Of a stretch of 12,156 bases of DNA, positions 1-12,156 are shown one piece after another. The stretch lies in UHGV virus genome UHGV-0071740, one strand, 5' to 3'. Positions within the stretch are counted from its first letter, which is position 1, and every line of letters starts with the position of its first letter. This DNA is from a virus. The position numbers and the translations under genes are program-made. Under the pieces are notes generated by a model. That model had not been told where the DNA came from. It saw nothing but the letters and a program-made list of their open reading frames with translations, and searched no databases.

Positions 1-170
1 TTTGGTCATTAGAGGCGCCGCACCCCCTGTGTCTGGCCGCAGCACCACAGAGTGCACAGGCGCGCAGTGACACTGCGCTGGATCGTCTGATGCAGGGGGC
101 ACCGGCACCGCTGGCTGCAGGTAACCCGGCATCTGATGCCGTTAACGATTTGCTGAACACACCAGTGTAA
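1..170 (+). CDS. C: capsid assembly protease C / scaffold Nu3, C-terminal end (5' partial, runs off window start)
   Basis: Frame open from window start to TAA at 168-170; translated tail ...APAPLAAGNPASDAVNDLLNTPV; sits immediately upstream of D as in lambda. Identity rests on position and recollection of lambda, not a search. Confidence 0.7.
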   Translation, partial: WSLEAPHPLCLAAAPQSAQARSDTALDRLMQGAPAPLAAGNPASDAVNDLLNTPV

Positions 171-179
171 GGGATGTTT

Positions 180-512
180 ATGACGAGCAAAGAAACCTTT
201 ACCCATTACCAGCCGCTGGGCAACAGTGACCCGGCTTATACCGCAACCGCGCCCGGCGGATTGAGTGCGAAAGCGCCTGCAATGACCCCGCTGATGCTGG
301 ACACCTCCAGCCGTAAGCTGGTTGCGTGGGATGGCCCCACCGACGGTGCTGCCGTTGGCATTCTTGCGGTTGCTGCTGACCAGACCAGCACCACGCTGAC
401 GTTCTACAAGTCCGGCACGTTCCGTTATGAGGATGTGCTCTGGCCGGAGGCTGCCAGCGACGAGACGAAAAAACGGACCGCGTTTGCCGGAACGGCAATC
501 AGCATCGTTTAA
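180..512 (+). CDS. D: head decoration protein D (110 aa)
   Basis: ORF track 174..512; translation from ATG 180 ([12 protein letters not shown]...[11 protein letters not shown]) matches lambda gpD almost residue for residue as I recall it; the ATG at 174 only adds MF. Confidence 0.95.
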
Positions 513-530
513 CTTTACCCTTCATCACTA

Positions 531-554
531 AAGGCCGCCTGTGCGGCTTTTTTT
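531..554 (+). terminator. GC-rich hairpin plus T-tract between D and E (terminator-like)
   Basis: Stem GCCGC (534-538) / GCGGC (543-547) extendable to about 8 bp, 4-nt loop CTGT, followed by a T run 548-554. Confidence 0.45.
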
Positions 555-567
555 ACGGGATTTTTTT

Positions 568-812
568 ATGTCGATGTACACAACCGCCCAGCTGCTGGCG
601 GCAAATGAGCAGAAATTTAAGTTTGATCCGCTGTTTCTGTGTCTCTTTTTCCGTGAGAGCTATCCCTTCACCACGGAGAAAGTCTATCTCTCACAAATTC
701 CGGGACTGGTAAACATGGCGCTGTACGTTTCGCCGATTGTTTCCGGTGAGGTTATCCGTTCCCGTGGCGGCTCCACCTCTGAATTTACGCCGGGATATGT
801 CAAGCCGAAGCA
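568..812 (+). pseudogene. E: major capsid protein E, N-terminal fragment (codons 1-82), interrupted by insertion
   Basis: Translation from ATG 568 (MSMYTTAQLLAANEQKFKFDPLFL...GYVKPKH) matches the lambda gpE N-terminus; the frame then reads 9 foreign codons (LAWLSEAFV) to a stop at 841-843. The rest of E resumes at 7333. Confidence 0.95.
803..812. repeat. left copy of 10-bp direct repeat AGCCGAAGCA (attL core / target duplication)
   Basis: Identical 10-mer at 803-812 and 7333-7342, exactly at the two points where E coding sequence breaks and resumes. Confidence 0.8.
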
Positions 813-920
813 CTTAGCATGGCTTTCTGAGGCTTTCGTGTAGTTGCTGGTTTTTACACTTAATCTTTTGATAATAAAGAATAAGTTTATCTGGCGCTTT
901 CACTGGATTTTCCTCGTTAT

Positions 921-962
921 CTGTGTGTTGCAATCATCTCTGTATTGCAGCTTGTATTGCTT
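921..962. repeat. direct repeats of TGT(G)TTGCA-type motif (candidate integrase arm-type sites, left end)
   Basis: TGTGTGTTGCAA 923-934, TGTATTGCAG 941-950, TGTATTGC 953-960, the last two 12 bp apart; the same motif recurs at 7234-7256 near the other end. Confidence 0.55.
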
Positions 963-975
963 TTTGGGGCTAAAA

Positions 976-2211
976 ATGGCTGGCGAGAACAAACTGAGCG
1001 ACAAAGCACTTAAAGGATATCTGGGGAAACCCAGAGAAAAGCAGATCACCATTGCTGATGGAAAGGGGCTTTCTATTCGTGTGAGTACCAAGGGGGCTGT
1101 GAGCTTTGTTTTCTTCTACAGGTTAGCAGGTGGCCGGGCTGCTCCGGTCTGGCTAACGTTGGGTAAATATCCTGATATGTCACTCAAACAGGCAAGGGAA
1201 AAGCGCGACGAGTGCCGTGGTTGGTTGGCTGACAAACGTGATCCGCGTATCCAGATTAAGATTCAGGCTGAAGAACGCTTAAAGCCGGTCACAGTGGAGG
1301 ATGCACTAAATTACTGGTATGAAAATTACTGTAAGGTGCGTCGTAAAACTCATGCTGTAACGCTTGGCAGATTTCGAAAGCATATCTTTCCCTATATCGG
1401 TCATTTGCCCGTAAATGACACTCACCTATATGAATGGCTGGACTGTTTTGACCGAATTAAACGTAATGCACCAGTTATGGCGGCGTATGTTTTTTCTGAC
1501 ACTAAATTAGCTCTTCGTTTTTGTCGGGTACGCCAGTACGCGACGTGTGATGTTTTAAAGGATTTGCGCATGAGTGATGTGGGGCAGATTGCAGGTAAGC
1601 GGGATCGGGTTCTGGATGAAGCCGAACTGGGCCAGCTCTGGAAGGCAATTTTTGTCGAGCCTGATTTAAAACTAATGTCTGAATACACGCGAAAAATGTT
1701 TGTGCTTTGTACAGTATTTGGATGTCGAATGAGTGAAGCCCGATTATCTGAATGGAGCGAATGGGATCTCGAAAGTTGGGTTTGGACTGTACCAAAAGAT
1801 CACTCAAAAACTGGTGTTGAAATCGTCAGACCAGTACCTGAAATTCTACGACAGTGGGTAACGGATGTTCACGAAGAGACAAAACATACTGGTTATGTGC
1901 TGGGAAGTCTGCGAATTAGAGAAAGCGTAAGCAAGATTGGGGGGAAAATCGGTAAACGTTTGGGCCATGAAAAACAATGGTCACTACACGACCTTAGAAG
2001 AACGCTATCTACTCATCTAAGTGATCTCGGTGTTGAATTTTATGTAGTAGAACAACTGTTAGGCCATGCGCTACCTGGCGTGGCAGGTGTTTACAACCGG
2101 AGTAAGTTTATGGCTAAAAAACTGGATGCTCTGGAACTCTGGACTACATATCTCAATAGCATCGCAGGTGCTGATTCAAAAGTGACAATCCTCAAACAAA
2201 AGGCTGGTTAA
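976..2211 (+). CDS. int: tyrosine recombinase / phage integrase, P4-like with N-terminal arm-binding domain
   Basis: ORF track 844..2211; most plausible start is ATG 976 (MAGENKLSDKALKGYLGKP...). C-terminal catalytic signature HDLRRT...LLGHA...GVYNRS (conserved His/Arg and putative catalytic Tyr); sits next to the element boundary. Confidence 0.9.
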   Translation: MAGENKLSDKALKGYLGKPREKQITIADGKGLSIRVSTKGAVSFVFFYRLAGGRAAPVWLTLGKYPDMSLKQAREKRDECRGWLADKRDPRIQIKIQAEERLKPVTVEDALNYWYENYCKVRRKTHAVTLGRFRKHIFPYIGHLPVNDTHLYEWLDCFDRIKRNAPVMAAYVFSDTKLALRFCRVRQYATCDVLKDLRMSDVGQIAGKRDRVLDEAELGQLWKAIFVEPDLKLMSEYTRKMFVLCTVFGCRMSEARLSEWSEWDLESWVWTVPKDHSKTGVEIVRPVPEILRQWVTDVHEETKHTGYVLGSLRIRESVSKIGGKIGKRLGHEKQWSLHDLRRTLSTHLSDLGVEFYVVEQLLGHALPGVAGVYNRSKFMAKKLDALELWTTYLNSIAGADSKVTILKQKAG

Positions 2212-2212
2212 C

Positions 2213-2434
2213 ATGAAAAAAATGGCAATTGTTGATAAAAAGGGTCTGGAGTACATTCCTAACATCGATCGTATGATCCGTGAGAAAGAATGTCGGGAGC
2301 TAACCACTCTTGCAAACAGCACACGCTGGAAGCTGGAGAAGGAAGGAAAATTTCCTAAGCGGATCAAGATTGGTTCCACTGCTGTTGCATATCGTCTTTC
2401 AGAAGTGCAGGCATGGATTAGGGGAGAGTGGTAA
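2213..2434 (+). CDS. alpA: AlpA-family (CP4-57 type) DNA-binding regulator / excisionase-like protein
   Basis: 73-aa ORF starting 2 nt after the int stop; small basic protein with ...KRIKIGSTAVAYRLSEVQAWIRGEW, typical of AlpA/Vis-like winged-helix proteins that accompany satellite integrases. Confidence 0.75.
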   Translation: MKKMAIVDKKGLEYIPNIDRMIREKECRELTTLANSTRWKLEKEGKFPKRIKIGSTAVAYRLSEVQAWIRGEW

Positions 2435-3835
2435 GAATTTAGACAGTGGATGGAATCCTATGGGGGGAACCCATAGGGTTTTAAATAACATAAATTCAAA
2501 AACGTGCGTAGTTGATGAGATTATATAATTAGGTGGTAAGTATTGAACTATTTCTCCATCTTCTTCAAAAATATGAATAACTCTTGGGAATAATTCAGGG
2601 CGTATAGGATTTAATGCCTTCGGATTATGAAACATGTATATTGCTGTACACCATGGTTCTTGATATGAAGGTGCATTGACAAGAGCAGTAAAAGGCATTG
2701 GGGTACAGCCTTCATCAGTTTTAATACCTCTAACGATGGATTTGACATTTTTTTGTTCAATCCCTGCCACTACTCCCATTCTATCAAATTTTGGGATGGT
2801 GGCATGTGTCGCAAGTAATATGGCTGAGACATTCTCATTTTTATTAGAGCCGAAAAAATTAGATGGTATACTTCGATTTTCAAATAAATGTTGTTCAATT
2901 TTACTTCCAGAATCCATATCTACACCATACAGATAGCTTTGTAGTGCTGGCATTGATATACTCATCGAAAGTCTGTGTGAGTAATCGTGTAAAGCAATAA
3001 TGAAAGGCTTTCCTTTTGTATGATCTAGTTCCCAATAGCATAATTTTAAGGGTTCAGGTTTATGCCTAACTTTCTTTAATAGAGTGCGGGCAAATTTGAA
3101 TGGCATTTGTTCTTTTACATATCTCTGAAGATCTTCTACTGCCTCATGATCAAGTATCAATTTCTCGGTAGGTTCCTCTTGTTCTGCAACTGTGGCAGCT
3201 TCTACAGCAATATCAATGCCATTTTTTGAGATAATATAATCAGGTTGAGCATAATCTCTGCATATTACGAAATCCATTTCGTAGAAAACTGCGTTTAGAT
3301 AAAGTTCGAATAAGCGAGAGTTAAATGAAGCACTCTGGAAATCTCTGATGAATATTCCATCAGGATCTTTACACCAATAAGCTAACTCTTGCATAACAAT
3401 AAATGCAGGATAGTGTTTGGGTTCCTCAAGTAGCATTCTTAGATAAACGTTTTTTTTATGTTCTGGAACTTTGGCTAGGAATATTGAAAATGCCGACTCT
3501 GATTCGTCACCCTGTATAAAACAACCGTTCTTGTGTAGTGATAATAGCTCTGGTATGGCTTTTTCCATATCAGTAATTAAATCATCTTTAGATTCACGGG
3601 ATACAATTACTTTAATCGCTCTAAATTTTTTATCTAAATCCCTACCTAGAAATATAGCGTTGTAATCATTATCTATTTTACAAAAAACAATTGTTGCTAA
3701 GATTGTGACATCATCCTTTATAAATTTGAACCAACAGATTTCCTCCGAAAAGGTTTTTACGTATGGTGTACGACCATAGAAAAATACATCAAATTGTTCT
3801 TTACTGATTTCTAGCATTTTGTGACTTGTTGTCAT
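2399..3835 (-). CDS. hypothetical 478-aa protein, AT-rich, no family assignable by eye (candidate defence/effector cargo)
   Basis: Long uninterrupted minus-strand ORF; start ATG at 3835 preceded by AAGGA Shine-Dalgarno; lies 23 nt downstream of the RHH gene on the same strand; strongly AT-rich relative to its surroundings. Confidence 0.7.
   Translation of the reverse strand: MTTSHKMLEISKEQFDVFFYGRTPYVKTFSEEICWFKFIKDDVTILATIVFCKIDNDYNAIFLGRDLDKKFRAIKVIVSRESKDDLITDMEKAIPELLSLHKNGCFIQGDESESAFSIFLAKVPEHKKNVYLRMLLEEPKHYPAFIVMQELAYWCKDPDGIFIRDFQSASFNSRLFELYLNAVFYEMDFVICRDYAQPDYIISKNGIDIAVEAATVAEQEEPTEKLILDHEAVEDLQRYVKEQMPFKFARTLLKKVRHKPEPLKLCYWELDHTKGKPFIIALHDYSHRLSMSISMPALQSYLYGVDMDSGSKIEQHLFENRSIPSNFFGSNKNENVSAILLATHATIPKFDRMGVVAGIEQKNVKSIVRGIKTDEGCTPMPFTALVNAPSYQEPWCTAIYMFHNPKALNPIRPELFPRVIHIFEEDGEIVQYLPPNYIISSTTHVFEFMLFKTLWVPPIGFHPLSKFLPLSPNPCLHF
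2456..2482 (+). terminator. rho-independent terminator-like hairpin after alpA
   Basis: TCCTATGGG (2456-2464) / CCCATAGGG (2470-2478), 5-nt loop GGGAA, then TTTT 2479-2482; begins 22 nt after the alpA stop. Confidence 0.55.
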
Positions 3836-3858
3836 AGAAGAATCCTTTATGCAAATTA

Positions 3859-4053
3859 TCAGCCTTTAGGTGTTATTCCTTGTTTTATTAGTTCGGCACG
3901 AGCCAGTTCTTTTAGCCAGTTACCTAAGCTCATCCCTTCTTTGGCAGCGACATTAACCATTTGTTCTTTTAATTCTGGGTTAATACGGACTTGGAATGCT
4001 GGTGCTTTACCTGCACCTTTCGGTTGTTTATCACGTTGAATGATAGTTGACAT
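3859..4053 (-). CDS. Arc/CopG-like ribbon-helix-helix DNA-binding protein (putative regulator or antitoxin)
   Basis: 64-aa ORF; segment PAFQVRINPELKEQMVNVAAKEGMSLGNWLKELARAEL fits the beta-strand then helix pattern of Arc/MetJ-type RHH proteins; first gene of the operon with the 478-aa ORF. Confidence 0.6.
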   Translation of the reverse strand: MSTIIQRDKQPKGAGKAPAFQVRINPELKEQMVNVAAKEGMSLGNWLKELARAELIKQGITPKG

Positions 4054-4095
4054 GTGTGTACCTATTGCTTAGTATGATTCTTGATAGGTACACAC
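4054..4095. promoter_or_regulatory. perfect 12-bp inverted repeat GTGTGTACCTAT-N18-ATAGGTACACAC (operator-like)
   Basis: Arms at 4054-4065 and 4084-4095; lies between the predicted -10 and the RHH start codon (4051-4053). Confidence 0.6.
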
Positions 4096-4113
4096 CTTAT
4101 CATGTTTTATTGC

Positions 4114-4142
4114 TATATAACAACGCCCTGCAGTGCTCGCAA
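4114..4142 (-). promoter_or_regulatory. predicted sigma70 promoter for the RHH/478-aa operon
   Basis: On the minus strand: -35 TTGCGA (4142-4137), 17-bp spacer, -10 TATATA (4119-4114); would start transcription about 50 nt upstream of the RHH ATG. Confidence 0.5.
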
Positions 4143-4156
4143 CACATACAGGGCGT
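4123..4156. promoter_or_regulatory. second inverted repeat ACGCCCTG-N18-CAGGGCGT overlapping the predicted -35
   Basis: Perfect 8-bp arms at 4123-4130 and 4149-4156, with the same 18-nt spacer length as the 12-bp palindrome. Confidence 0.4.
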
Positions 4157-4390
4157 CTAACCACCAACGATAGCAACAGTATCGAGGTAGCTATGAGAAA
4201 TCATACCACACACCCGCAAGGGCGGGATTCGCACAACCTGAATAAATACATCTGGCGTTTTATCGCCCTGAGCACCGCACAACCACGCGTAATACACATC
4301 GAGGCCGCCAGCGAACAGGAAGCCCGCCAGCAATCCCCAACTGGCTACGTGATGATATTCGCCGCCCGTATTCGTCAGGAGGTGTGCCAT
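4157..4390 (-). CDS. possible small hydrophobic protein (77 aa); coding status uncertain
   Basis: ORF track; GC-rich block with frequent G at codon position 1 and common E. coli codons in this frame; hydrophobic stretch WGLLAGFLFAGGLDVYYAWLCGA. But its start codon overlaps the start and Shine-Dalgarno of the divergent + gene, which is awkward. Confidence 0.3.
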   Translation of the reverse strand: MAHLLTNTGGEYHHVASWGLLAGFLFAGGLDVYYAWLCGAQGDKTPDVFIQVVRIPPLRVCGMISHSYLDTVAIVGG

Positions 4391-4613
4391 GAATGATCTT
4401 TATTTTAAAGTGCTGACACATGCTGAAAACGCGCTCGTTTGTGGCAAAAATATGCGAGAAATCTTATCAACCTGGCTTGATGGGACAACAAATGCAGAAC
4501 ACGATGAACGGGATGCTAATTTAGCTGGAGCGTTAATTACGTTACTTGATCCTGTCATCAAAGAGCTGGATGAAGCTATAAAAATACACGACCAGAGCTA
4601 TACCGGAGAATAA
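4389..4613 (+). CDS. hypothetical protein (74 aa), first gene of the primase operon
   Basis: ATG 4389 preceded by AGGAGG 4377-4382; followed 3 nt later by the next ORF. Confidence 0.55.
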   Translation: MNDLYFKVLTHAENALVCGKNMREILSTWLDGTTNAEHDERDANLAGALITLLDPVIKELDEAIKIHDQSYTGE

Positions 4614-4616
4614 AAA

Positions 4617-4904
4617 ATGAAAAATAAATTTTCTGGCTTTATTGCCAGCGGTCAAACTCATTCAAAAATCAGCCTTGGGGATATTTTCAAAGACAGCTAT
4701 GGCTATCGGGTAAAGATTATTTCGGTTGATGATCGTCGTGTCTCTTATTTGCGTGATGGTTATGATTTTGAATGTGTTATGCCGCGTCAGCAGTTCGAAA
4801 GAGATTTCATTCTGGTAAAAAATTGCAAGACAGATAATCAGAGGCGTGCCGCAGGCTATATCCGTAAAATTCGGGCAATGTTAGTTGCCGGAGGTAACAA
4901 ATGA
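4617..4904 (+). CDS. hypothetical protein (95 aa), translationally coupled to primase
   Basis: ATG 4617 preceded by GGAGA; its stop overlaps the primase start (ATGA at 4901-4904). Confidence 0.55.
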   Translation: MKNKFSGFIASGQTHSKISLGDIFKDSYGYRVKIISVDDRRVSYLRDGYDFECVMPRQQFERDFILVKNCKTDNQRRAAGYIRKIRAMLVAGGNK

Positions 4905-6667
4905 AACGTGCTCCGAACTTAAAATACCAACCGCGCGACAAAATGACGGAAGTCATCATTTTTGCTGGCAGTGATGCCTGGAGCCATGCAAAAGAATGGA
5001 ATGAATGGGCAGGTAAGCATATTGCAGCAGATGATACACCACCAGTCATTCTGGGTACGGAACAACTGGAAAACCTGGATGATATGCAAATTATCGATGA
5101 AGGCCGTCATTATGTGCGTGTTTATCGTGCCGGAAAGATTGCAGAGAAAAGTCTGACGAAGGTTGCGACATTACTTGCTATTGCAGGCGTAAAGGAAGCA
5201 CGTTGTTACCGTAGCTTTGTTGATCGAGAGCCTGAAGACTGGACTCCGCGCCTTGTCGGCCTAAAAGCTGAAGCGGAGCATGGGGAAAGTCTGGTGATTG
5301 AACTGCCAGTGAAGAAGGCTGAGCGCAAAAATGACGAGCGTGCTTCATCTTTGGCGTTGAATCAGATGGGGGCCAGCCAGCGCGGTGAAGTTCTCCTTGC
5401 ACATTACGGCGGCGAACTGGCAATCAATGCCGACTCTGACACCGTTCATCATTACAACGGCGTTGTATGGGAGCCGGTTCAGGATAAAGAGTTACAGCGT
5501 GCTATGGCGCAGATTTTCATTGATGCGGAGATCAGCTATTCGCAGAACGCTATTAAATCGGCGGTAGATACCATGAAGTTAAGTTTGCCTGTAATGGGGA
5601 ATACAGCCCGTAACCTGATTGGATTCAGTAACGGGGTATTTGATACCAGAACTGGTAATTTTCGGGAGCATAACAAAAACGACTGGTTGTTAATTGCCAG
5701 TGAATTACCTTTCAGCCCACCAGCAGAGGGGGAAACGCTGGCAACACATGCGCCGAATTTCTGGAAGTGGTTGCGCCGTTCGGTGGCTGAGAATGACCGC
5801 AAGGCAGATCGCGTACTGGCGGCATTATTCATGGTGCTGGCGAACCGGTACGACTGGCAGTTATTCATTGAGGTAACAGGGCCGGGGGGAAGTGGTAAAA
5901 GTGTGATGGCGGAGATTTGCACCATGCTGGCGGGTAAGGCTAATACAGTATCAGCAAGCATGAAGGCGCTGGAAGATGCAAGGGAACGTGCGTTAGTGGT
6001 TGGCTTTTCGCTGATTATCATGCCGGATATGACCCGCTACGCTGGTGATGGGGCAGGGATTAAGGCCATTACAGGCGGTGACAAGGTGGCAATTGACCCG
6101 AAACACAAAGCCCCCTATTCAACGCGTATTCCGGCAGTAGTGCTGGCGGTTAACAATAACGCCATGTCATTCAGTGACCGCAGCGGGGGGATCTCACGTC
6201 GTCGGGTGATATTCAATTTTTCGGAAGTTGTACCGGAGAACGAACGCGATTCGATGCTGGCGGAAAAAATAGAAGGTGAGCTGGCGGTAGTGATTCGTCA
6301 TCTGCTTACAAGGTTTGCTGATCAGGACGAAGCCAGACGCCTGTTATATGAGCAGCAGAAATCTGAAGAAGCACTGGCGATAAAGCGAGAGGGGGATTCG
6401 CTGGTGGACTTCTGCGGTTATCTCATGGCATCGGTAATGTGTGATGGCCTGTTAGTGGGTAATGCTGAAATTGTGCCATTCAGCCCACGCAGGTATCTCT
6501 ATCATGCCTATCTTGATGAGCTGTTCGTTCCATGTGCATCACCGAGTTTATTACGAAGAGTACCTAACCCATTTACAACTGCAGAACAACCGCCGAGAAT
6601 TTGTTTGAAGATATTTTCAGTATGTTGGTCGGCAGATAGGTTAAGTTCTTTTGAAAGAGTTTTATAA
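4901..6667 (+). CDS. P4-family primase/helicase-like replication protein (D5_N-like region, SF3-type P-loop), C-terminus apparently truncated or chimeric
   Basis: 588-aa ORF; Walker A GPGGSGKS encoded near 5880-5900; hydrophobic-D Walker B-like LIIMPD; overall pattern of phage/plasmid primase P4-family C-terminal domain; the last ~50 codons are antisense to the HEPN gene and look like read-through. Confidence 0.8.
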   Translation: MKRAPNLKYQPRDKMTEVIIFAGSDAWSHAKEWNEWAGKHIAADDTPPVILGTEQLENLDDMQIIDEGRHYVRVYRAGKIAEKSLTKVATLLAIAGVKEARCYRSFVDREPEDWTPRLVGLKAEAEHGESLVIELPVKKAERKNDERASSLALNQMGASQRGEVLLAHYGGELAINADSDTVHHYNGVVWEPVQDKELQRAMAQIFIDAEISYSQNAIKSAVDTMKLSLPVMGNTARNLIGFSNGVFDTRTGNFREHNKNDWLLIASELPFSPPAEGETLATHAPNFWKWLRRSVAENDRKADRVLAALFMVLANRYDWQLFIEVTGPGGSGKSVMAEICTMLAGKANTVSASMKALEDARERALVVGFSLIIMPDMTRYAGDGAGIKAITGGDKVAIDPKHKAPYSTRIPAVVLAVNNNAMSFSDRSGGISRRRVIFNFSEVVPENERDSMLAEKIEGELAVVIRHLLTRFADQDEARRLLYEQQKSEEALAIKREGDSLVDFCGYLMASVMCDGLLVGNAEIVPFSPRRYLYHAYLDELFVPCASPSLLRRVPNPFTTAEQPPRICLKIFSVCWSADRLSSFERVL

Positions 6668-7173
6668 AGCTCTGACATTTCAATATTTTTATTATTATAC
6701 TGAATGCCCATATCATCAAGAATGTGTTTGCAAACTGTTTCAAGAAGTGTTCTTGCGGAGGTTATCGCACCATCCGGATCTGTATGGCGCCGTTCAAGTG
6801 CTTTTATCCAAACGGCGTGGACTCCATCCTCGTTAAACTTTCTTAATACATCAGATATGTCTTCATCCGCTGGAGCTTTATTTTTCCCTTCTAGATAGTC
6901 CAGCATCGGCTGAAATGCCTTATAAATCAAATCTCTCCGGGGGGCATACTTTTCAGTCTTTTTTATAAATCCCCAAAATTCTTTTAGTGAGCGATTAGTT
7001 CTCACAAACTCTGGTAATAGCTGATGTAAAGGAGGATTTTGTAAGAAATATGTTCTTAGAAGCAAATAATCATTATTAGCTTCATCCTGGGCTCCTGTAG
7101 CTCTTGCAATTAGTATGTTTTGAAGCGCTACTGCGCGCTCTAGGTCATTTTGAAGGGTATCTATAATATTCAT
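6508..7173 (-). CDS. HEPN-type abortive-infection-like protein (Abi_C-like), 221 aa
   Basis: Minus-strand ORF, AT-rich; C-terminal GLGTLRNKLGDAHG contains an R-x6-H motif of the HEPN/Abi_C type; only 7 residues follow the motif His, so the protein may be C-terminally shortened. Confidence 0.55.
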   Translation of the reverse strand: MNIIDTLQNDLERAVALQNILIARATGAQDEANNDYLLLRTYFLQNPPLHQLLPEFVRTNRSLKEFWGFIKKTEKYAPRRDLIYKAFQPMLDYLEGKNKAPADEDISDVLRKFNEDGVHAVWIKALERRHTDPDGAITSARTLLETVCKHILDDMGIQYNNKNIEMSELYKTLSKELNLSADQHTENIFKQILGGCSAVVNGLGTLRNKLGDAHGTNSSSR

Positions 7174-7233
7174 AACAAATCTTTATTCACTTCATTTGTG
7201 GGTTGATAATTGAATGGTTTGTACATTGATTTC

Positions 7234-7256
7234 TGTGTATTGCAGTGTGTATTGCA
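7234..7256. repeat. tandem direct repeat TGTGTATTGCA x2 (candidate integrase arm-type sites, right end)
   Basis: Copies at 7234-7244 and 7246-7256 (12-bp register), about 80-100 bp inside the right junction; same motif and orientation as the left-end copies. Confidence 0.55.
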
Positions 7257-7332
7257 ACATAGCCATTCAGGTAGAGATTATGCTCTATTTTTCCTCTTAT
7301 ATCATTCACATACTTACACCATTGACTCATGT

Positions 7333-7342
7333 AGCCGAAGCA
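7333..7342. repeat. right copy of 10-bp direct repeat AGCCGAAGCA (attR core)
   Basis: Identical to 803-812; lambda-like E sequence resumes from here. Confidence 0.8.
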
Positions 7343-8123
7343 TGAAGTGAATCCGCAGATGACCCTGCGTCGCCTGCCGGATGAAGATCCGCAGAATCTG
7401 GCGGACCCGGCTTACCGCCGCCGTCGCATCATCATGCAGAACATGCGTGACGAAGAGCTGGCCATTGCTCAGGTCGAAGAGATGCAGGCAGTTTCTGCCG
7501 TGCTTAAGGGCAAATACACCATGACCGGTGAAGCCTTCGATCCGGTTGAGGTGGATATGGGCCGCAGTGAGGAGAATAACATCACGCAGTCCGGCGGCAC
7601 GGAGTGGAGCAAGCGTGACAAGTCCACGTATGACCCGACCGACGATATCGAAGCCTACGCGCTGAACGCCAGCGGTGTGGTGAATATCATCGTGTTCGAT
7701 CCGAAAGGCTGGGCGCTGTTCCGTTCCTTCAAAGCCGTCAAGGAGAAGCTGGATACCCGTCGTGGCTCTAATTCCGAGCTGGAGACAGCGGTGAAAGACC
7801 TGGGCAAAGCGGTGTCCTATAAGGGGATGTATGGCGATGTGGCCATCGTCGTGTATTCCGGACAGTACGTGGAAAACGGCGTCAAAAAGAACTTCCTGCC
7901 GGACAACACGATGGTGCTGGGGAACACTCAGGCACGCGGTCTGCGCACCTATGGCTGCATTCAGGATGCGGACGCACAGCGCGAAGGCATTAACGCCTCT
8001 GCCCGTTACCCGAAAAACTGGGTGACCACCGGCGATCCGGCGCGTGAGTTCACCATGATTCAGTCAGCACCGCTGATGCTGCTGGCTGACCCTGATGAGT
8101 TCGTGTCCGTACAACTGGCGTAA
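7333..8123 (+). pseudogene. E: major capsid protein E, C-terminal fragment (codon ~80 to end), no start codon of its own
   Basis: Frame open from 7335, with an in-frame TAG at 7332-7334 just upstream; translation ...KPKHEVNPQMTLRRLPDEDPQN...DEFVSVQLA matches the remainder of lambda gpE. Confidence 0.95.
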
Positions 8124-8125
8124 TC

Positions 8126-8143
8126 ATGGCCCTTCGGGGCCAT
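8126..8143 (+). other. stable hairpin ATGGCCC-TTCG-GGGCCAT in the E-FI intergenic region
   Basis: 7-bp perfect stem with a UUCG tetraloop immediately after the E stop; its ATG (8126) is a spurious ORF start. Confidence 0.45.
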
Positions 8144-8164
8144 TGTTTCTCTGTGGAGGAGTCC

Positions 8165-8563
8165 ATGACGAAAGATGAACTGATTGCCCGTCTCCGCTCG
8201 CTGGGTGAACAACTGAACCGTGATGTCAGCCTGACGGGGACGAAAGAAGAACTGGCGCTCCGTGTGGCAGAGCTGGAAGAGGAGCTTGATGACACGGATG
8301 AAACTGCCGGTCAGGACACCCCTCTCAGCCGGGAAAATGTGCTGACCGGACATGAAAATGAGGTGGGATCAGCGCAGCCGGATACCGTGATTCTGGATAC
8401 GTCTGAACTGGTCACGGTCGTGGCACTGGTGAAGCTGCATACTGATGCACTTCACGCCACGCGGGATGAACCTGTGGCATTTGTGCTGCCGGGAACGGCG
8501 TTTCGTGTCTCTGCCGGTGTGGCAGCCGAAATGACAGAGCGCGGCCTGGCCAGAATGCAATAA
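8165..8563 (+). CDS. FI: DNA packaging / head assembly protein FI
   Basis: Translation from ATG 8165 (MTKDELIARLRSLGEQLNRD...ERGLARMQ) matches lambda gpFI; GGAGGA Shine-Dalgarno 8155-8160. Confidence 0.9.
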   Translation: MTKDELIARLRSLGEQLNRDVSLTGTKEELALRVAELEEELDDTDETAGQDTPLSRENVLTGHENEVGSAQPDTVILDTSELVTVVALVKLHTDALHATRDEPVAFVLPGTAFRVSAGVAAEMTERGLARMQ

Positions 8564-8574
8564 CGGGAGGCGCT

Positions 8575-8928
8575 GTGGCTGATTTCGATAACCTGTTCGA
8601 TGCTGCCATTGCCCGCGCCGATGAAACGATACGCGGGTACATGGGAACGTCAGCCACCATGACATCCGGTGAGCAGTCAGGTGCGGTGATACGTGGTGTT
8701 TTTGATGACCCTGAAAATATCAGCTATGCCGGACAGGGCGTGCGCGTTGAAGGCTCCAGCCCGTCCCTGTTTGTCCGGACTGATGAGGTGCGGCAGCTGC
8801 GGCGTGGAGACACGCTGACCATCGGTGAGGAAAATTTCTGGGTAGATCGGGTTTCGCCGGATGATGGCGGAAGTTGTCATCTCTGGCTTGGACGGGGCGT
8901 ACCGCCTGCCGTTAACCGTCGCCGCTGA
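8575..8928 (+). CDS. FII: head-tail joining protein FII
   Basis: GTG start 8575 after GGGAGG; translation MADFDNLFDAAIARADETIRGYMG...PPAVNRRR matches lambda gpFII. Confidence 0.9.
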   Translation: MADFDNLFDAAIARADETIRGYMGTSATMTSGEQSGAVIRGVFDDPENISYAGQGVRVEGSSPSLFVRTDEVRQLRRGDTLTIGEENFWVDRVSPDDGGSCHLWLGRGVPPAVNRRR

Positions 8929-8939
8929 AAGGGGGATGT

Positions 8940-9518
8940 ATGGCCATAAAAGGTCTTGAGCAGGCCGTTGAAAACCTCAGCCGTATCAGCAAAACGGCGG
9001 TGCCTGGTGCCGCCGCAATGGCCATTAACCGCGTTGCTTCATCCGCGATATCGCAGTCGGCGTCACAAGTTGCCCGTGAGACAAAGGTACGCCGGAAACT
9101 GGTAAAGGAAAGGGCCAGGCTGAAAAGGGCCACGGTCAAAAATCCGCAGGCCAGAATCAAAGTTAACCGGGGGGATTTGCCCGTAATCAAGCTGGGTAAT
9201 GCGCGGGTTGTCCTTTCGCGCCGCAGGCGTCGTAAAAAGGGGCAGCGTTCATCCCTGAAAGGTGGCGACAGCGTGCTTGTGGTGGGTAACCGTCGTATTC
9301 CCGGCGCGTTTATTCAGCAACTGAAAAATGGCCGGTGGCATGTCATGCAGCGTGTGGCCGGGAAAAACCGTTACCCCATTGATGTGGTGAAAATCCCGAT
9401 GGCGGTGCCGCTGACCACGGCGTTTAAACAAAATATTGAGCGGATACGGCGTGAACGTCTTCCGAAAGAGCTGGGCTATGCGCTGCAGCATCAACTGAGG
9501 ATGGTAATAAAGCGATGA
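8940..9518 (+). CDS. Z: tail assembly protein Z
   Basis: Translation MAIKGLEQAVENLSRISKTAVPGAAAMAINRV... matches lambda gpZ. Confidence 0.9.
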   Translation: MAIKGLEQAVENLSRISKTAVPGAAAMAINRVASSAISQSASQVARETKVRRKLVKERARLKRATVKNPQARIKVNRGDLPVIKLGNARVVLSRRRRRKKGQRSSLKGGDSVLVVGNRRIPGAFIQQLKNGRWHVMQRVAGKNRYPIDVVKIPMAVPLTTAFKQNIERIRRERLPKELGYALQHQLRMVIKR

Positions 9519-9910
9519 AACATACTGAACTCCGTGCAGCCGTACTGGATGCACTGGAGAAGCATGACACCGGGGCGACGTTTTTTGATGGTCGCCCCGC
9601 TGTTTTTGATGAGGCGGATTTTCCGGCAGTTGCCGTTTATCTCACCGGCGCTGAATACACGGGCGAAGAGCTGGACAGCGATACCTGGCAGGCGGAGCTG
9701 CATATCGAAGTTTTCCTGCCTGCTCAGGTGCCGGATTCAGAGCTGGATGCGTGGATGGAGTCCCGGATTTATCCGGTGATGAGCGATATCCCGGCACTGT
9801 CAGATTTGATCACCAGTATGGTGACCAGCGGCTATGACTACCGGCGCGACGATGATGCGGGCCTGTGGAGGTCAGCCGCTCTTACTTATGTCATTACCTA
9901 TGAAATGTGA
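9515..9910 (+). CDS. U: tail terminator protein U
   Basis: Start overlaps the Z stop (ATGA); translation [31 protein letters not shown]... matches lambda gpU. Confidence 0.9.
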
Positions 9911-9917
9911 GGACGCT

Positions 9918-10658
9918 ATGCCTGTACCAAATCCTACAATGCCGGTGAAAGGTGCCGGGACCACCCTGTGGGTTTATAAGGGGAGCGGTGACCCTTATGC
10001 GAATCCGCTTTCAGACGTTGACTGGTCGCGTCTGGCAAAAGTTAAAGACCTGACGCCCGGCGAACTGACCGCTGAGTCCTATGACGACAGCTATCTCGAT
10101 GATGAAGATGCAGACTGGACTGCGACCGGGCAGGGGCAGAAATCTGCCGGAGATACCAGCTTCACGCTGGCGTGGATGCCCGGAGAGCAGGGGCAGCAGG
10201 CGCTGCTGGCGTGGTTTAATGAAGGCGATACCCGTGCCTATAAAATCCGCTTCCCGAACGGCACGGTCGATGTGTTCCGTGGCTGGGTCAGCAGTATCGG
10301 TAAGGCGGTGACGGCGAAGGAAGTGATCACCCGCACGGTGAAAGTCACCAATGTGGGACGTCCGTCGATGGCAGAAGATCGCAGCACGGTAACAGCGGCA
10401 ACCGGCATGACCGTGACGCCTGCCAGCACCTCGGTGGTGAAAGGGCAGAGCACCACGCTGACCGTGGCCTTCCAGCCGGAGGGCGTAACCGACAAGAGCT
10501 TTCGTGCGGTGTCTGCGGATAAAACAAAAGCCACCGTGTCGGTCAGTGGTATGACCATCACCGTGAACGGCGTTGCTGCAGGCAAGGTCAACATTCCGGT
10601 TGTATCCGGTAATGGTGAGTTTGCTGCGGTTGCAGAAATTACCGTCACCGCCAGTTAA
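9918..10658 (+). CDS. V: major tail tube protein V with C-terminal Ig-like domain
   Basis: Translation from ATG 9918 ([22 protein letters not shown]...) matches lambda gpV, 246 aa; the ORF track start at 9834 is an upstream extension overlapping U. Confidence 0.95.
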
Positions 10659-10673
10659 TCCGGAGAGTCAGCG

Positions 10674-11096
10674 ATGTTCCTGAAAACCGAATCATTTGAA
10701 CATAACGGTGTGACCGTCACGCTTTCTGAACGGTCAGCCCTGCAGCGCATTGAGCATCTCGCCCTGATGAAACGGCAGGCAGAACAGGCGGAGTCAGACA
10801 GCAACCGGAAGTTTACTGTGGAAGACGCCATCAGAACCGGCGCGTTTCTGGTGGCGATGTCCCTGTGGCATAACCATCCGCAGAAGACGCAGATGCCGTC
10901 CATGAATGAAGCCGTTAAACAGATTGAGCAGGAAGTGCTTACCACCTGGCCCACGGAGGCAATTTCTCATGCTGAAAACGTGGTGTACCGGCTGTCTGGT
11001 ATGTATGAGTTTGTGGTGAATGATGCCCCTGAACAGGCAGAGGACGCCGGGCCTGCAGAGCCTGTTTCTGCGGGAAAGTGTTCGACGGTGAGCTGA
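10674..11096 (+). CDS. G: tail assembly chaperone G
   Basis: Translation MFLKTESFEHNGVTVTLSERSALQRIEHLALMKRQAEQ... matches lambda gpG, 140 aa. Confidence 0.9.
   Translation: MFLKTESFEHNGVTVTLSERSALQRIEHLALMKRQAEQAESDSNRKFTVEDAIRTGAFLVAMSLWHNHPQKTQMPSMNEAVKQIEQEVLTTWPTEAISHAENVVYRLSGMYEFVVNDAPEQAEDAGPAEPVSAGKCSTVS
11072..11078 (+). promoter_or_regulatory. programmed -1 ribosomal frameshift slippery heptamer GGGAAAG (G to G-T fusion)
   Basis: Heptamer in the G frame as G GGA AAG, six codons before the G stop; the T frame opens in the -1 frame exactly here. Confidence 0.85.
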
Positions 11097-11512
11097 GTTT
11101 TGCCCTGAAACTGGCGCGCGAGATGGGGCGACCCGACTGGCGTGCCATGCTTGCCGGGATGTCATCCACGGAGTATGCCGACTGGCACCGCTTTTACAGT
11201 ACCCATTATTTTCATGATGTTCTGCTGGATATGCACTTTTCCGGGCTGACGTACACCGTGCTCAGCCTGTTTTTCAGCGATCCGGATATGCATCCGCTGG
11301 ATTTCAGTCTGCTGAACCGGCGCGAGGCTGACGAAGAGCCTGAAGATGATGTGCTGATGCAGAAAGCGGCAGGGCTTGCCGGAGGCGTTCGTTTTGGCCC
11401 GGACGGGAATGAAGTTATCCCCGCTTCCCCGGATGTGGCGGACATGACGGAGGATGACGTAATGCTGATGACAGTATCAGAAGGGATCGCAGGAGGAGTC
11501 CGGTATGGCTGA
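11078..11512 (+). CDS. T: tail assembly protein T, expressed only as a G-T fusion via the -1 frameshift
   Basis: -1 frame ORF with no convincing own start; translation ...FDGELSFALKLAREMGRPDWRAMLAGMSSTEYADWHRFYSTHYFHDV... matches lambda gpT. Confidence 0.85.
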   Translation: MFDGELSFALKLAREMGRPDWRAMLAGMSSTEYADWHRFYSTHYFHDVLLDMHFSGLTYTVLSLFFSDPDMHPLDFSLLNRREADEEPEDDVLMQKAAGLAGGVRFGPDGNEVIPASPDVADMTEDDVMLMTVSEGIAGGVRYG

Positions 11513-12156
11513 ACCGGTAGGCGATCTGGTCGTTGATTTAAGTCTGGATGCGGCCAGATTTGACGAGCAGATGGCCAGAGTCAGGCGTCATTTTTCCGGT
11601 ACGGAAAGTGATGCGAAAAAAACAGCGGCAGTCGTTGAACAGTCGCTGAGCCGACAGGCGCTGGCTGCACAGAAAGCGGGGATTTCCGTCGGGCAGTATA
11701 AAGCCGCCATGCGTATGCTGCCTGCACAGTTCACCGACGTGGCCACGCAGCTTGCAGGCGGGCAAAGTCCGTGGCTGATCCTGCTGCAACAGGGGGGTCA
11801 GGTTAAGGACTCCTTCGGCGGGATGATCCCCATGTTCAGGGGGCTTGCCGGCCACCTCGCTGGCGGTGGCGACCGGTGCGCTGGCGTATGCCTGGTATCA
11901 GGGCAACTCAACCCTGTCCGATTTCAACAAAACGCTGGTCCTTTCCGGCAATCAGGCGGGACTGACGGCAGATCGTATTCTGGCCCTGTCCAGAGCCGGG
12001 CAGGCGGCAGGGCTGACGTTTAACCAGACCAGCGAGTCACTCAGCGCACTGGTTAAGGCGGGGGTAAGCGGTGAGGCTCAGATTGCGTCCATCAGCCAGA
12101 GTGTGGCGCGTTTCTCCTCTGCATCCGGCGCGGCGGGGGACAAGGTCGCTGAAGCC
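11505..12156 (+). pseudogene. H: tail tape measure protein H, 5' part, frame-disrupted near 11850 (3' partial, runs off window end)
   Basis: ATG 11505 (MAEPVGDLVVDLSLDAARFDEQ...) matches the lambda gpH N-terminus, but this frame ends at 12023 after a Gly/Arg-rich nonsense tail, while the +1 frame is open from 11827 to the window end and reads ATSLAVATGALAYAWYQGNSTLSDFNKTLVLSGNQAGLTADR... Confidence 0.7.

Follow-up and report, generated by a model that had tools for sequence, protein, structure and literature searches.

A 160-bp convergent overlap of a P4-alpha-like primase gene and an AbiJ-like gene as the very probable scar of a 4.7-kb deletion in a satellite embedded in a capsid gene

[quoted passage not shown] The E fragments are flanked by the D gene upstream and the FI-FII-Z-U-V-G-T-H genes downstream, and the int, alpA, and primase genes of the insert lie on the same strand as E, i.e., the element is placed inside a late gene of the prophage and co-oriented with it. 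In relatives, the 5′ fragment of E is annotated as "major capsid protein, missing C-terminus." In silico excision, joining 568–812 to 7343–8123, generated an in-frame E ORF of 341 aa. The embedding of a satellite in a prophage capsid gene had gone unnoticed in the preliminary description of this DNA, which was concerned with the 3′ end of the primase gene. According to the ORF list of the window, a plus-strand ORF of 588 aa (4901–6667) and a minus-strand ORF of 221 aa (6508–7173) have the stretch 6508–6667 in common, which is exactly the convergent overlap of 160 bp described earlier. The primase frame reads ...PRRYLYHAYL and continues as DELFVPCASP..., and the Abi protein terminates in ...LRNKLGDAHGTNSSSR, seven residues past the histidine of an R-x6-H motif; both readings had been given correctly. 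The GC content falls from ∼0.50 to ∼0.35 at ∼6500 of the window.

Table 1. Features of the satellite and of the surrounding prophage, in window coordinates.
Feature	Position	Strand	Basis or remark
Head decoration gene, lambda D homologue, of the surrounding lambdoid prophage	174..512	+	PF02924 HDPD
Prophage major capsid gene E, 5′ fragment	568..843	+	PF03864 on the 91-aa product; 81 native residues to the att core, then into the satellite
attL core AGCCGAAGCA, 10-bp identity block	803..812		Identical 10-mer at 7333–7342
Doubled arm-type motif TGTATTGCA..TGTATTGC	937..960	+	Repeat family; 131.5 bp past the attL core center
Satellite tyrosine integrase, 411 aa	976..2211	+	Arm-DNA-bind_3 and Phage_integrase domains
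AlpA-family regulator/excisionase	2213..2434	+	PF05930
PD-T7-1 anti-phage defense gene, cargo of the "Bro zone" slot	2399..3835	-	PADLOC PDLC04073, E 9e-154, profile 1–448/452
Icd-like gene, hypothetical gene, and DUF4222 gene, same operon upstream of the primase	4193..4904	+	PF13973; annotation of 99%-identical relatives
Primase/helicase, native part, P4-alpha-like, residues 1–538 of 606	4901..6513	+	Identity to WP_000817024.1; D5_N and DUF5906
Deletion junction	6513..6514		Three-way comparison with L001 and L021; T at 6513 common to both parental sides (1-bp microhomology)
Read-through tail of the primase ORF, 50 antisense-Abi codons and stop	6514..6667	+	Protein comparison; without primase homology
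AbiJ-like HEPN (Abi_C) gene, truncated	6508..7173	-	Pfam, PADLOC; residues 1–220 native (6514–7173), then one new codon (R) and TAG from primase antisense
Second doubled arm-type motif	7232..7255	+	Same repeat family; 82.5 bp before the attR core center
attR core AGCCGAAGCA	7333..7342		Matches the attL core
Prophage capsid gene E, 3′ part	7343..8123	+	Phage_cap_E profile 94–328/329

Judged from its sequence features, the stretch 813–7342 appears to be a helper-embedded PICI (HE-PICI) that has its insertion site in the lambdoid capsid gene E and belongs to the capE type known from the literature. For 11capE, the prototype of the E:Phage_cap_E group, a 10-bp identity block in the capsid gene has been reported, and the doubled motif tgTGTATTGCantgTGTATTGCa of HE-PICIs is located 81 ± 2 bp upstream and 132 ± 2 bp downstream of the attP center (Tommasini, Mageeney & Williams, 2023; PMC10111431). 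The AGCCGAAGCA pair of the window corresponds to this block in its length and its location in the capsid gene, and the spacings of the arm motifs (82.5 and 131.5 bp) are in agreement with the published distances. The second of these motifs, at 7232–7255, puts the Abi gene inside the satellite. As in 11capE, the element lies in and is co-oriented with E, and int and alpA come first, followed by a variable zone and then the primase gene. The HE-PICI layout consists of four ordered zones, namely, Integration, Bro/variable, Replication (pri, ori, and SSB), and Late (PMC10111431). All four are present in the intact relatives L001, L018, L020, and L021, in which an origin after pri, an SSB gene, and a late zone that includes a capsid gene follow the 11capE-type layout, whereas in the window only the Integration zone, the variable zone, and a truncated pri are left. 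Since the element lacks the origin, SSB, and the Late zone, and since all four zones occur in the intact relatives, it is best regarded as a deleted derivative of the HE-PICI family and not as a complete member. It also differs from 11capE in its cargo, which consists of PD-T7-1 and the AbiJ-like gene. Truncated helpers are mentioned in the published account, but truncated satellites are not; internally deleted copies are not described there, and defense cargo is not discussed (PMC10111431).

The junction, which had been suspected near 6508–6530, was pinned at 6513/6514 by comparison with the intact relatives. In Escherichia coli C 237-04 (L021), a 606-aa primase (WP_000817024.1) and a 253-aa Abi protein (WP_001021158.1) are encoded in one element. 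Window positions 4249–6513 are 99.25% identical to positions 4010–6274 of L021, and the window from 6513 onward equals L021 from 11000 onward, leaving 4,726 bp missing. The same breakpoints were obtained with KMi006 (L001), relative to which 4,700 bp are missing, and SCU-316 (L018) showed the same breakpoint on the left side only. Neither protein of the window aligns end to end with its full-length homologues; the earlier suggestion of a recombination scar truncating one or both genes was thus borne out for both, at a single junction. The segment absent from the window contains, in the intact relatives, the TGTTCACC iteron origin and the genes for SSB, an E-like capsid protein, a D-like decoration protein, an AlpA-like protein, and a Nu1-like small terminase. 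That the internal deletion also took the origin and the whole late module had been missed in the preliminary description. Comparison of the breakpoints with L001 and L021 revealed no repeat able to explain the deletion apart from the one shared T. A similarity between GGCTTAT and GGCTTAAT was considered as a cause of slipped mispairing and was rejected, as it sits entirely within the deleted segment. Promoter and terminator scans near the junction and near the intact Abi 3′ end remained at the background level. Zero matches were obtained when the window was scanned for tRNAs and, at gathering thresholds, with Rfam, and a C4/isrK-type immunity RNA or a tRNA att site is not involved.

Residues 1–538 of the window primase showed 100% amino acid identity to the 606-aa protein, and the homology of the gene to L001, L018, and L021 ends at 6513. 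Pfam recognized D5_N (PF08706, residues 163–292) and DUF5906 (PF19263, residues 326–434) in the window protein, i.e., the D5_N domain and the SF3 helicase P-loop are present; the TIGR01613 score of 92.8 bits was under the cut-off of 108.7 bits. The Pox_D5 domain (residues 496–591) was reported by Pfam in the intact primase and not in that of the window. Residues 497–593 of the intact primase match the P4 alpha origin-binding domain (PDB 1KA8, E 1.8e-24), and the LY..Y..WC..G..P.S motif, given in the preliminary description as a C-terminal motif of P4-family primases, could be assigned more specifically to this domain. In the window primase, the domain is cut after ∼42 of 98 aligned residues, and over half of the P4-alpha-type origin-binding domain is lost. 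The cognate iterons are missing as well. In L001 and L018, 8–9 TGTTCACC iterons were found within 220 bp 3′ of the primase stop, whereas zero were found within the element of the window; the sole match in the window, at 8204, belongs to the FI gene of the prophage and is no more than chance would give. The octamer is identical to the "ori type 1 repeat" annotated in the P4 record, and a full-text literature search for it returned unrelated primer sequences alone.

The intact allele therefore resembles P4 alpha in having D5_N, an SF3-type P-loop, and a 1KA8-type C-terminal domain, and the octamers of the intact relatives, which cluster directly 3′ of the primase gene, resemble the type 1 ori repeats of P4. 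It differs in its length (606 aa vs. 777 aa for P4 alpha) and in that Pfam recognized no N-terminal primase domain in it; also, P4 has separate ori and crr regions, in contrast to the one iteron cluster downstream of the gene in the intact relatives. The window departs from P4 in the state of both components, and owing to the loss of the iterons and the halving of the alpha-type origin-binding domain, the remnant is predicted to be no longer able to replicate. It is also predicted to be unable to direct its own packaging.

The Abi protein of the window is 100% identical to the intact protein over residues 1–220, with 0 nucleotide differences. The Abi_C profile (PF14355) is covered from 2 to 57 of 83 positions in the window protein as against 2–82 in the intact one, and the PADLOC AbiJ profile (281 positions) is covered over 162–250 as against 162–274; the Abi_C domain is therefore incomplete. 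The HEPN motif R-x(4-6)-H is retained as R207-N-K-L-G-D-A-H214, and R207 and H214 are invariant in 30 homologues. Family members are nearly all 248–257 aa long. The lost tail includes 14 nearly invariant positions in the homologue alignment and corresponds to the last helix (residues 225–252) in the AlphaFold model. The HEPN assignment leans on the Pfam and PADLOC profiles and on the motif, as Foldseek of the model against PDB gave no significant match (best related, the HEPN protein Csm6, probability 0.5, E 0.3); a PDB sequence search with the intact protein gave no match. Hence, the window protein is similar to AbiJ/Abi_C HEPN proteins in its Abi_C match, the C-terminal half of the AbiJ profile, and R-x6-H, but its N-terminal half finds no match in the AbiJ profile and the conserved last helix is missing. 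Because this helix of the HEPN domain is gone, the window protein is expected to be inactive.

Carriers of the junction turned up solely via exact-protein look-ups, in which the exact chimeric 588-aa and 221-aa proteins were found on at least 24 contigs each. The 65-nt junction was identical in all loci fetched, from 10 different samples including that of the window, and nine or more metagenome or isolate assemblies, independent of one another, contained the exact junction. The sources were ENA, JGI, Logan, and an NCBI TPA E. coli genome, one contig being 401 kb long, and the chimeric primase is found in NCBI as HHV2223335.1 [E. coli]. The junction-bearing contigs were 99.6–100% identical to the window. 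The overlap was not conserved in relatives: it was present in 0 of 5,426 complete E. coli genomes (megablast), where the two halves match separately only, and an exact 35-nt junction scan of GTDB representative genomes gave no match.

The overlap is most readily explained, with a probability of about 0.9, as the scar of a single ∼4.7-kb deletion in a capE-type satellite that truncated both genes and removed the origin and the late module. The ancestor would have had the order int, alpA, defense slot, icd-like gene, DUF4222 gene, P4-alpha-like primase/helicase gene, iteron origin, SSB, E-like capsid, D-like decoration, AlpA-like gene, Nu1-like small terminase, hypothetical gene, and a convergent AbiJ-like HEPN gene by attR. 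One illegitimate deletion of ∼4.7 kb with 1-bp microhomology would have joined primase codon 538 to Abi codon 220, and the overlap would measure 160 bp because each ORF then continues through the antisense of the other up to a chance stop. The positions of the breakpoints, the shortening of both proteins, the absence of iterons and late module, and the junction in independent samples were observed directly, and the event is regarded as a recent deletion in a single step and as ordinary decay within a known type of element. The reverse polarity, with the window ancestral and the relatives carrying an insertion, was rejected, because it is precisely at the junction that conserved domains are cut off in both ORFs. 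An assembly chimera may be suggested by the coverage of only 4.16 of the window contig (ENA ERZ1742012 NODE_1002) and by the absence of the junction from the complete E. coli and GTDB representative genomes; it is, however, refuted by the identical 65-nt junction and both chimeric proteins across independent projects and assemblers, and retains a negligible likelihood.

Illegitimate recombination between two satellites, e.g., a carrier of PD-T7-1 and a restriction endonuclease and a carrier of Abi cargo, would be an alternative to an intramolecular deletion. Over its left 6.5 kb, the window shares 99.2% identity with L018, which carries PD-T7-1 like the window and has an Mrr_cat restriction endonuclease, not Abi, in the attR-proximal slot, whereas the Abi block matches L001 and L021 at 100% identity, and the Bro-zone cargo of these two differs from PD-T7-1. 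The family is mosaic with both cargo slots variable, and an ancestor identical across the whole element was not found among the relatives compared. However, primase and Abi alleles identical to those of the window occur in L021 within a single element, separated by 4.7 kb, so that one event suffices for an intramolecular deletion, without a second element being involved; the late zone that separates primase and Abi is ∼94% identical among elements, and ordinary homologous exchange can therefore explain the allele combinations. A two-satellite origin, from which the same scar would result, is accordingly considered improbable. There is next to no likelihood that the overlap is native and selected, e.g., for antisense regulation between the primase operon and Abi, with both proteins being natural short forms. 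Both ORFs are open and identical across the junction-bearing contigs, which speaks for such an arrangement, but all carriers are ≥99.6% identical, which indicates one recent lineage and not conservation. The tail of 50 aa shows no homology to primases, the homologues measure 606 aa and ∼250 aa, and strongly conserved residues are missing. Moreover, when the codons of the Abi gene were shuffled 20,000 times, the primase frame stayed open for at least 51 codons in 11% of the shuffles; an overlap of this length is within what chance produces.

With the deletion as the preferred reading, the locus illustrates a route of satellite decay in which one deletion removes the origin, the origin-binding domain, the packaging module, and one defense gene, while the integration module and the other defense gene stay. 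The att cores, arm motifs, int, alpA, and PD-T7-1 are all intact in the remnant. Excision, restoring E, and PD-T7-1 defense may persist, since int, alpA, both att sites, and PD-T7-1 are preserved. As the remnant still interrupts the prophage capsid gene, capsid production by the prophage hinges on its ability to excise. It is conceivable, though rather unlikely, that the deleted satellite is a domesticated, non-replicating cassette that still excises, acting as a removable plug in the helper capsid gene and as a PD-T7-1 carrier inherited and disseminated in cis with the prophage and no longer as a satellite; if so, its occurrence in many independent samples without further decay would reflect selection and not youth alone. 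The current understanding of satellites is unchanged, as the element type was already published in 2023. As regards annotation, HHV2223335.1, the "DNA primase family protein" of 588 aa, and the Abi protein of 221 aa should be flagged as pseudogenes, being fusion/truncation products.

The satellite family has two slots with strain-variable defense genes, similar to the defense hotspots of P4-like elements (PMC9122126) and PICI-borne immune systems, with the difference that the slots sit in an HE-PICI and not in a P4-like element. Depending on the strain, the slot after alpA contains PD-T7-1, an "abortive infection protein," or DUF2971 with SWIM, and the slot adjoining attR contains an AbiJ-like gene or an Mrr-type endonuclease gene. 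Unlike in such variable hotspots, one of the two cargo genes of the window was damaged by the deletion.

The open reading frames (ORFs) of the P4-alpha-like primase/helicase and of the minus-strand AbiJ-like HEPN (Abi_C) gene (Abi) overlap by 160 bp (6508-6667), as stated in the preliminary description. Its reading of both termini was also correct: the primase reads ...PRRYLYHAYL and then DELFVPCASP..., and the Abi protein terminates with LRNKLGDAHGTNSSSR and the stop codon, seven residues past the His of the R-x6-H motif. GC content drops at ~6500 from ~0.50 to 0.35 and stays low as far as ~7350. Past the junction at 6513/6514, the primase frame continues for 50 codons without a stop; when the Abi codons were shuffled 20,000 times, 11% of the shuffles gave a run of at least 51 codons. 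On the other strand, a stop closes the Abi ORF two codons beyond the junction. The length of the overlap itself has no meaning.

Features of the window and their coordinates
Feature	Position	Strand	Size or support	Source or location
Primase ORF	4901-6667	+	588 aa	ORF list
Abi ORF	6508-7173	-	221 aa	ORF list
PD-T7-1, intact	2399-3835	-	PADLOC E 9e-154	Between alpA and regulatory genes
att core 10-mer AGCCGAAGCA	803-812 and 7333-7342
Doubled TGTATTGC motif	937-960 and 7232-7255

Comparison with intact relatives supported the earlier proposal of truncation at a junction near 6508-6530, showed that both genes are truncated there, and sharpened its position to 6513/6514. Megablast of window 5900-7500 and of a shorter junction query against 5,426 complete E. 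coli genomes retrieved no junction-spanning record with either query length. Window 6513-7500 was matched in the same search by many records with up to 100% identity, annotated as "abortive infection family protein | major capsid protein." E. coli KMi006 (L001) carries, in order, genes for a primase (605 aa), a hypothetical protein, SSB, a major capsid protein, a head decoration protein, an HTH protein, a small terminase, another hypothetical protein, and a convergent Abi (253 aa); a lambda-type capsid gene lacking its N-terminal part follows, and then FI, FII, Z, U, V, G, T, and H. Window 5298-6513 aligned with L001 2086-3301 and window 6513-12156 with L001 8001-13667; since these BLAST blocks meet at 6513 but stand apart in L001, the window is 4,700 bp short. 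The two L001 sides share only the T at 6513 at the breakpoint. The match of strain SCU-316 (L018) to window 32-6513 (99.2% identity) likewise ends exactly at 6513. The best model of the parent is strain C 237-04 (L021), in which a single element encodes a 606-aa primase (WP_000817024.1) as well as a 253-aa Abi (WP_001021158.1) and the breakpoints lie 4,726 bp apart. Primase residues 1-538 and Abi residues 1-220 of the window are 100% identical to the L021 proteins, and the nucleotide differences amount to six in the primase, all synonymous, and none in Abi; hence, the deletion is recent and was not followed by further decay. At the sequence level, these comparisons show what appears to be a single illegitimate deletion of ~4.7 kb, with 1 bp of microhomology, that fused two convergent genes of a helper-embedded PICI (HE-PICI).

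The intact primase contains a Pox_D5 domain at residues 496-591, and its residues 497-593 match the P4 alpha origin-binding domain (PDB 1KA8, E 1.8e-24). The LY..Y... motif named in the preliminary description lies within this domain. The window primase departs after ~42 of the 98 residues aligned to 1KA8; Pfam reported D5_N and DUF5906 (SF3 helicase P-loop) in it, and no Pox_D5. Directly 3' of the primase stop, TGTTCACC octamers occur nine times in L001 (within ~220 bp, in both orientations) and eight times in L018, totals never attained in shuffled sequence. In P4, the annotated "ori type 1 repeats" consist of this octamer; no copy was found inside the window's element. With the iterons gone and the origin-binding domain cut, the deletion therefore removed the origin along with its recognition domain. 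Also deleted were SSB, an E-like capsid, a D-like decoration, an AlpA-like and a Nu1-like small terminase gene, and two hypothetical genes. The intact relatives have their own late genes at L001 4679-7207 and L021 7679-10209, namely a lambda-E-like capsid (346 aa), D-like decoration, second AlpA-like, and Nu1-like small terminase gene; such satellites thus carry a capsid gene of their own while interrupting the helper's E.

In Abi, the Abi_C profile (83 positions) is covered over 2-57 in the window vs. 2-82 in the intact protein (Pfam), and the PADLOC AbiJ profile (281 positions) over 162-250 vs. 162-274. Nearly all homologues are 248-257 aa long among the best 120 of 3,546. Across 30 aligned homologues, 14 positions of the segment absent from the window protein are almost invariant, with the pattern P..RHAELAVNL.G....FL..T. 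In the AlphaFold model of intact Abi (mean pLDDT 82), R207-H214 lies at the end of helix 187-214 and the lost part corresponds to the last helix (225-252); the helix anticipated past the R-x6-H motif is thus present in the intact protein and gone from the window. Foldseek of the model against the PDB gave no significant match, so the HEPN assignment rests on profiles and the motif.

The length of the homologues and the loss of conserved residues rule out a selected overlapping arrangement of the two genes. The window assembly (ENA ERZ1742012 NODE_1002) has a coverage of ~4x; an assembly chimera was, however, ruled out by independent assemblies carrying the junction. The exact 588-aa and 221-aa proteins are each encoded on at least 24 contigs assembled by ENA, JGI, or Logan, one junction-bearing contig is 401 kb long, and the chimeric primase is present in NCBI (HHV2223335.1, E. 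coli). The 65-nt junction is identical across all loci fetched, and junction contigs are 99.6-100% identical to the window, which fits one event passed down in one lineage. Exchange between two distinct satellites could also have produced the junction, as none of the relatives found is identical from end to end; L021, where both alleles lie in one element, makes that route unnecessary.

Upstream of the satellite are terminase, W, portal, S49 protease, D, and a 91-aa E fragment; downstream, a 254-aa E fragment is followed by tail genes, and in silico joining of both sides gave an in-frame 341-aa E. The HE-PICI prototype 11capE resides in a lambda-like capsid gene via a 10-bp identity block, its motif tgTGTATTGCantgTGTATTGCa has distances to the attP centre of 81 ± 2 and 132 ± 2 bp, and the HE-PICI layout runs through an integration zone, a variable region, a replication zone with the origin downstream of pri, and a late-gene zone (Tommasini, Mageeney & Williams 2023, PMC10111431). 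The window's element, which spans 813-7342, agrees with 11capE in its capsid-gene site, 10-bp block, and motif distances (82.5 and 131.5 bp) and, judged by these sequence features, is a published helper-embedded PICI of the capE type. The junction is an ordinary decay of a known element type; its use is mainly practical, for annotation, and the wider surprise is small.

The remnant would have lost replication and self-packaging, and the truncated Abi is probably inactive. The remnant may still excise and restore E, since int and alpA are preserved along with the two att cores and the two arm motifs, and PD-T7-1 may remain functional. A 6,538-bp metagenome contig (JGI 3300014919) is 100% identical to window 808-7345 and spans the deleted satellite and no more, with an att core at each end. 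It could represent the excised form, or the assembly graph may simply have broken there because E occurs both with and without the insertion. The contig ends show no overlap of the kind a circle would give. The mechanical call of the integrase ORF begins with TTG at 844, immediately past the E-fragment stop, and public assemblies place the start at 976, beyond the arm-type motif.

Abi follows the late zone and precedes the attR-side arm motif, which makes it satellite cargo. The same slot holds an Mrr-type endonuclease in L018 and in L020, a further strain with an intact relative, where a pseudogene fragment and an Mrr_cat restriction endonuclease replace the small-terminase gene (L018 16681-18227, L020 13955-15501); the late-zone/cargo boundary has thus undergone more than one rearrangement in the family. 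Relatives carry other genes in the post-alpA slot occupied by PD-T7-1. PD-T7-1 is 478 aa long in the window; sibling contigs have a 449-aa form, the difference being due to a cluster of eight SNPs at 2453-2501 that includes a stop loss. Given the 4x coverage, the cluster could stem from sequencing error or from a small conversion tract.

The helper in SCU-316 lies at a Qin-type locus, with ydfO, ynfO, and nohA upstream of terminase (L018 1-1771). In sample ERZ28571311 (L011), which carries the same deleted satellite, the helper prophage is itself decaying: unannotated ORFs (373-2637) stand in place of recognisable portal and S49 protease genes, and the tape-measure gene is shorter (724 vs. 853 aa; 14996-17170).
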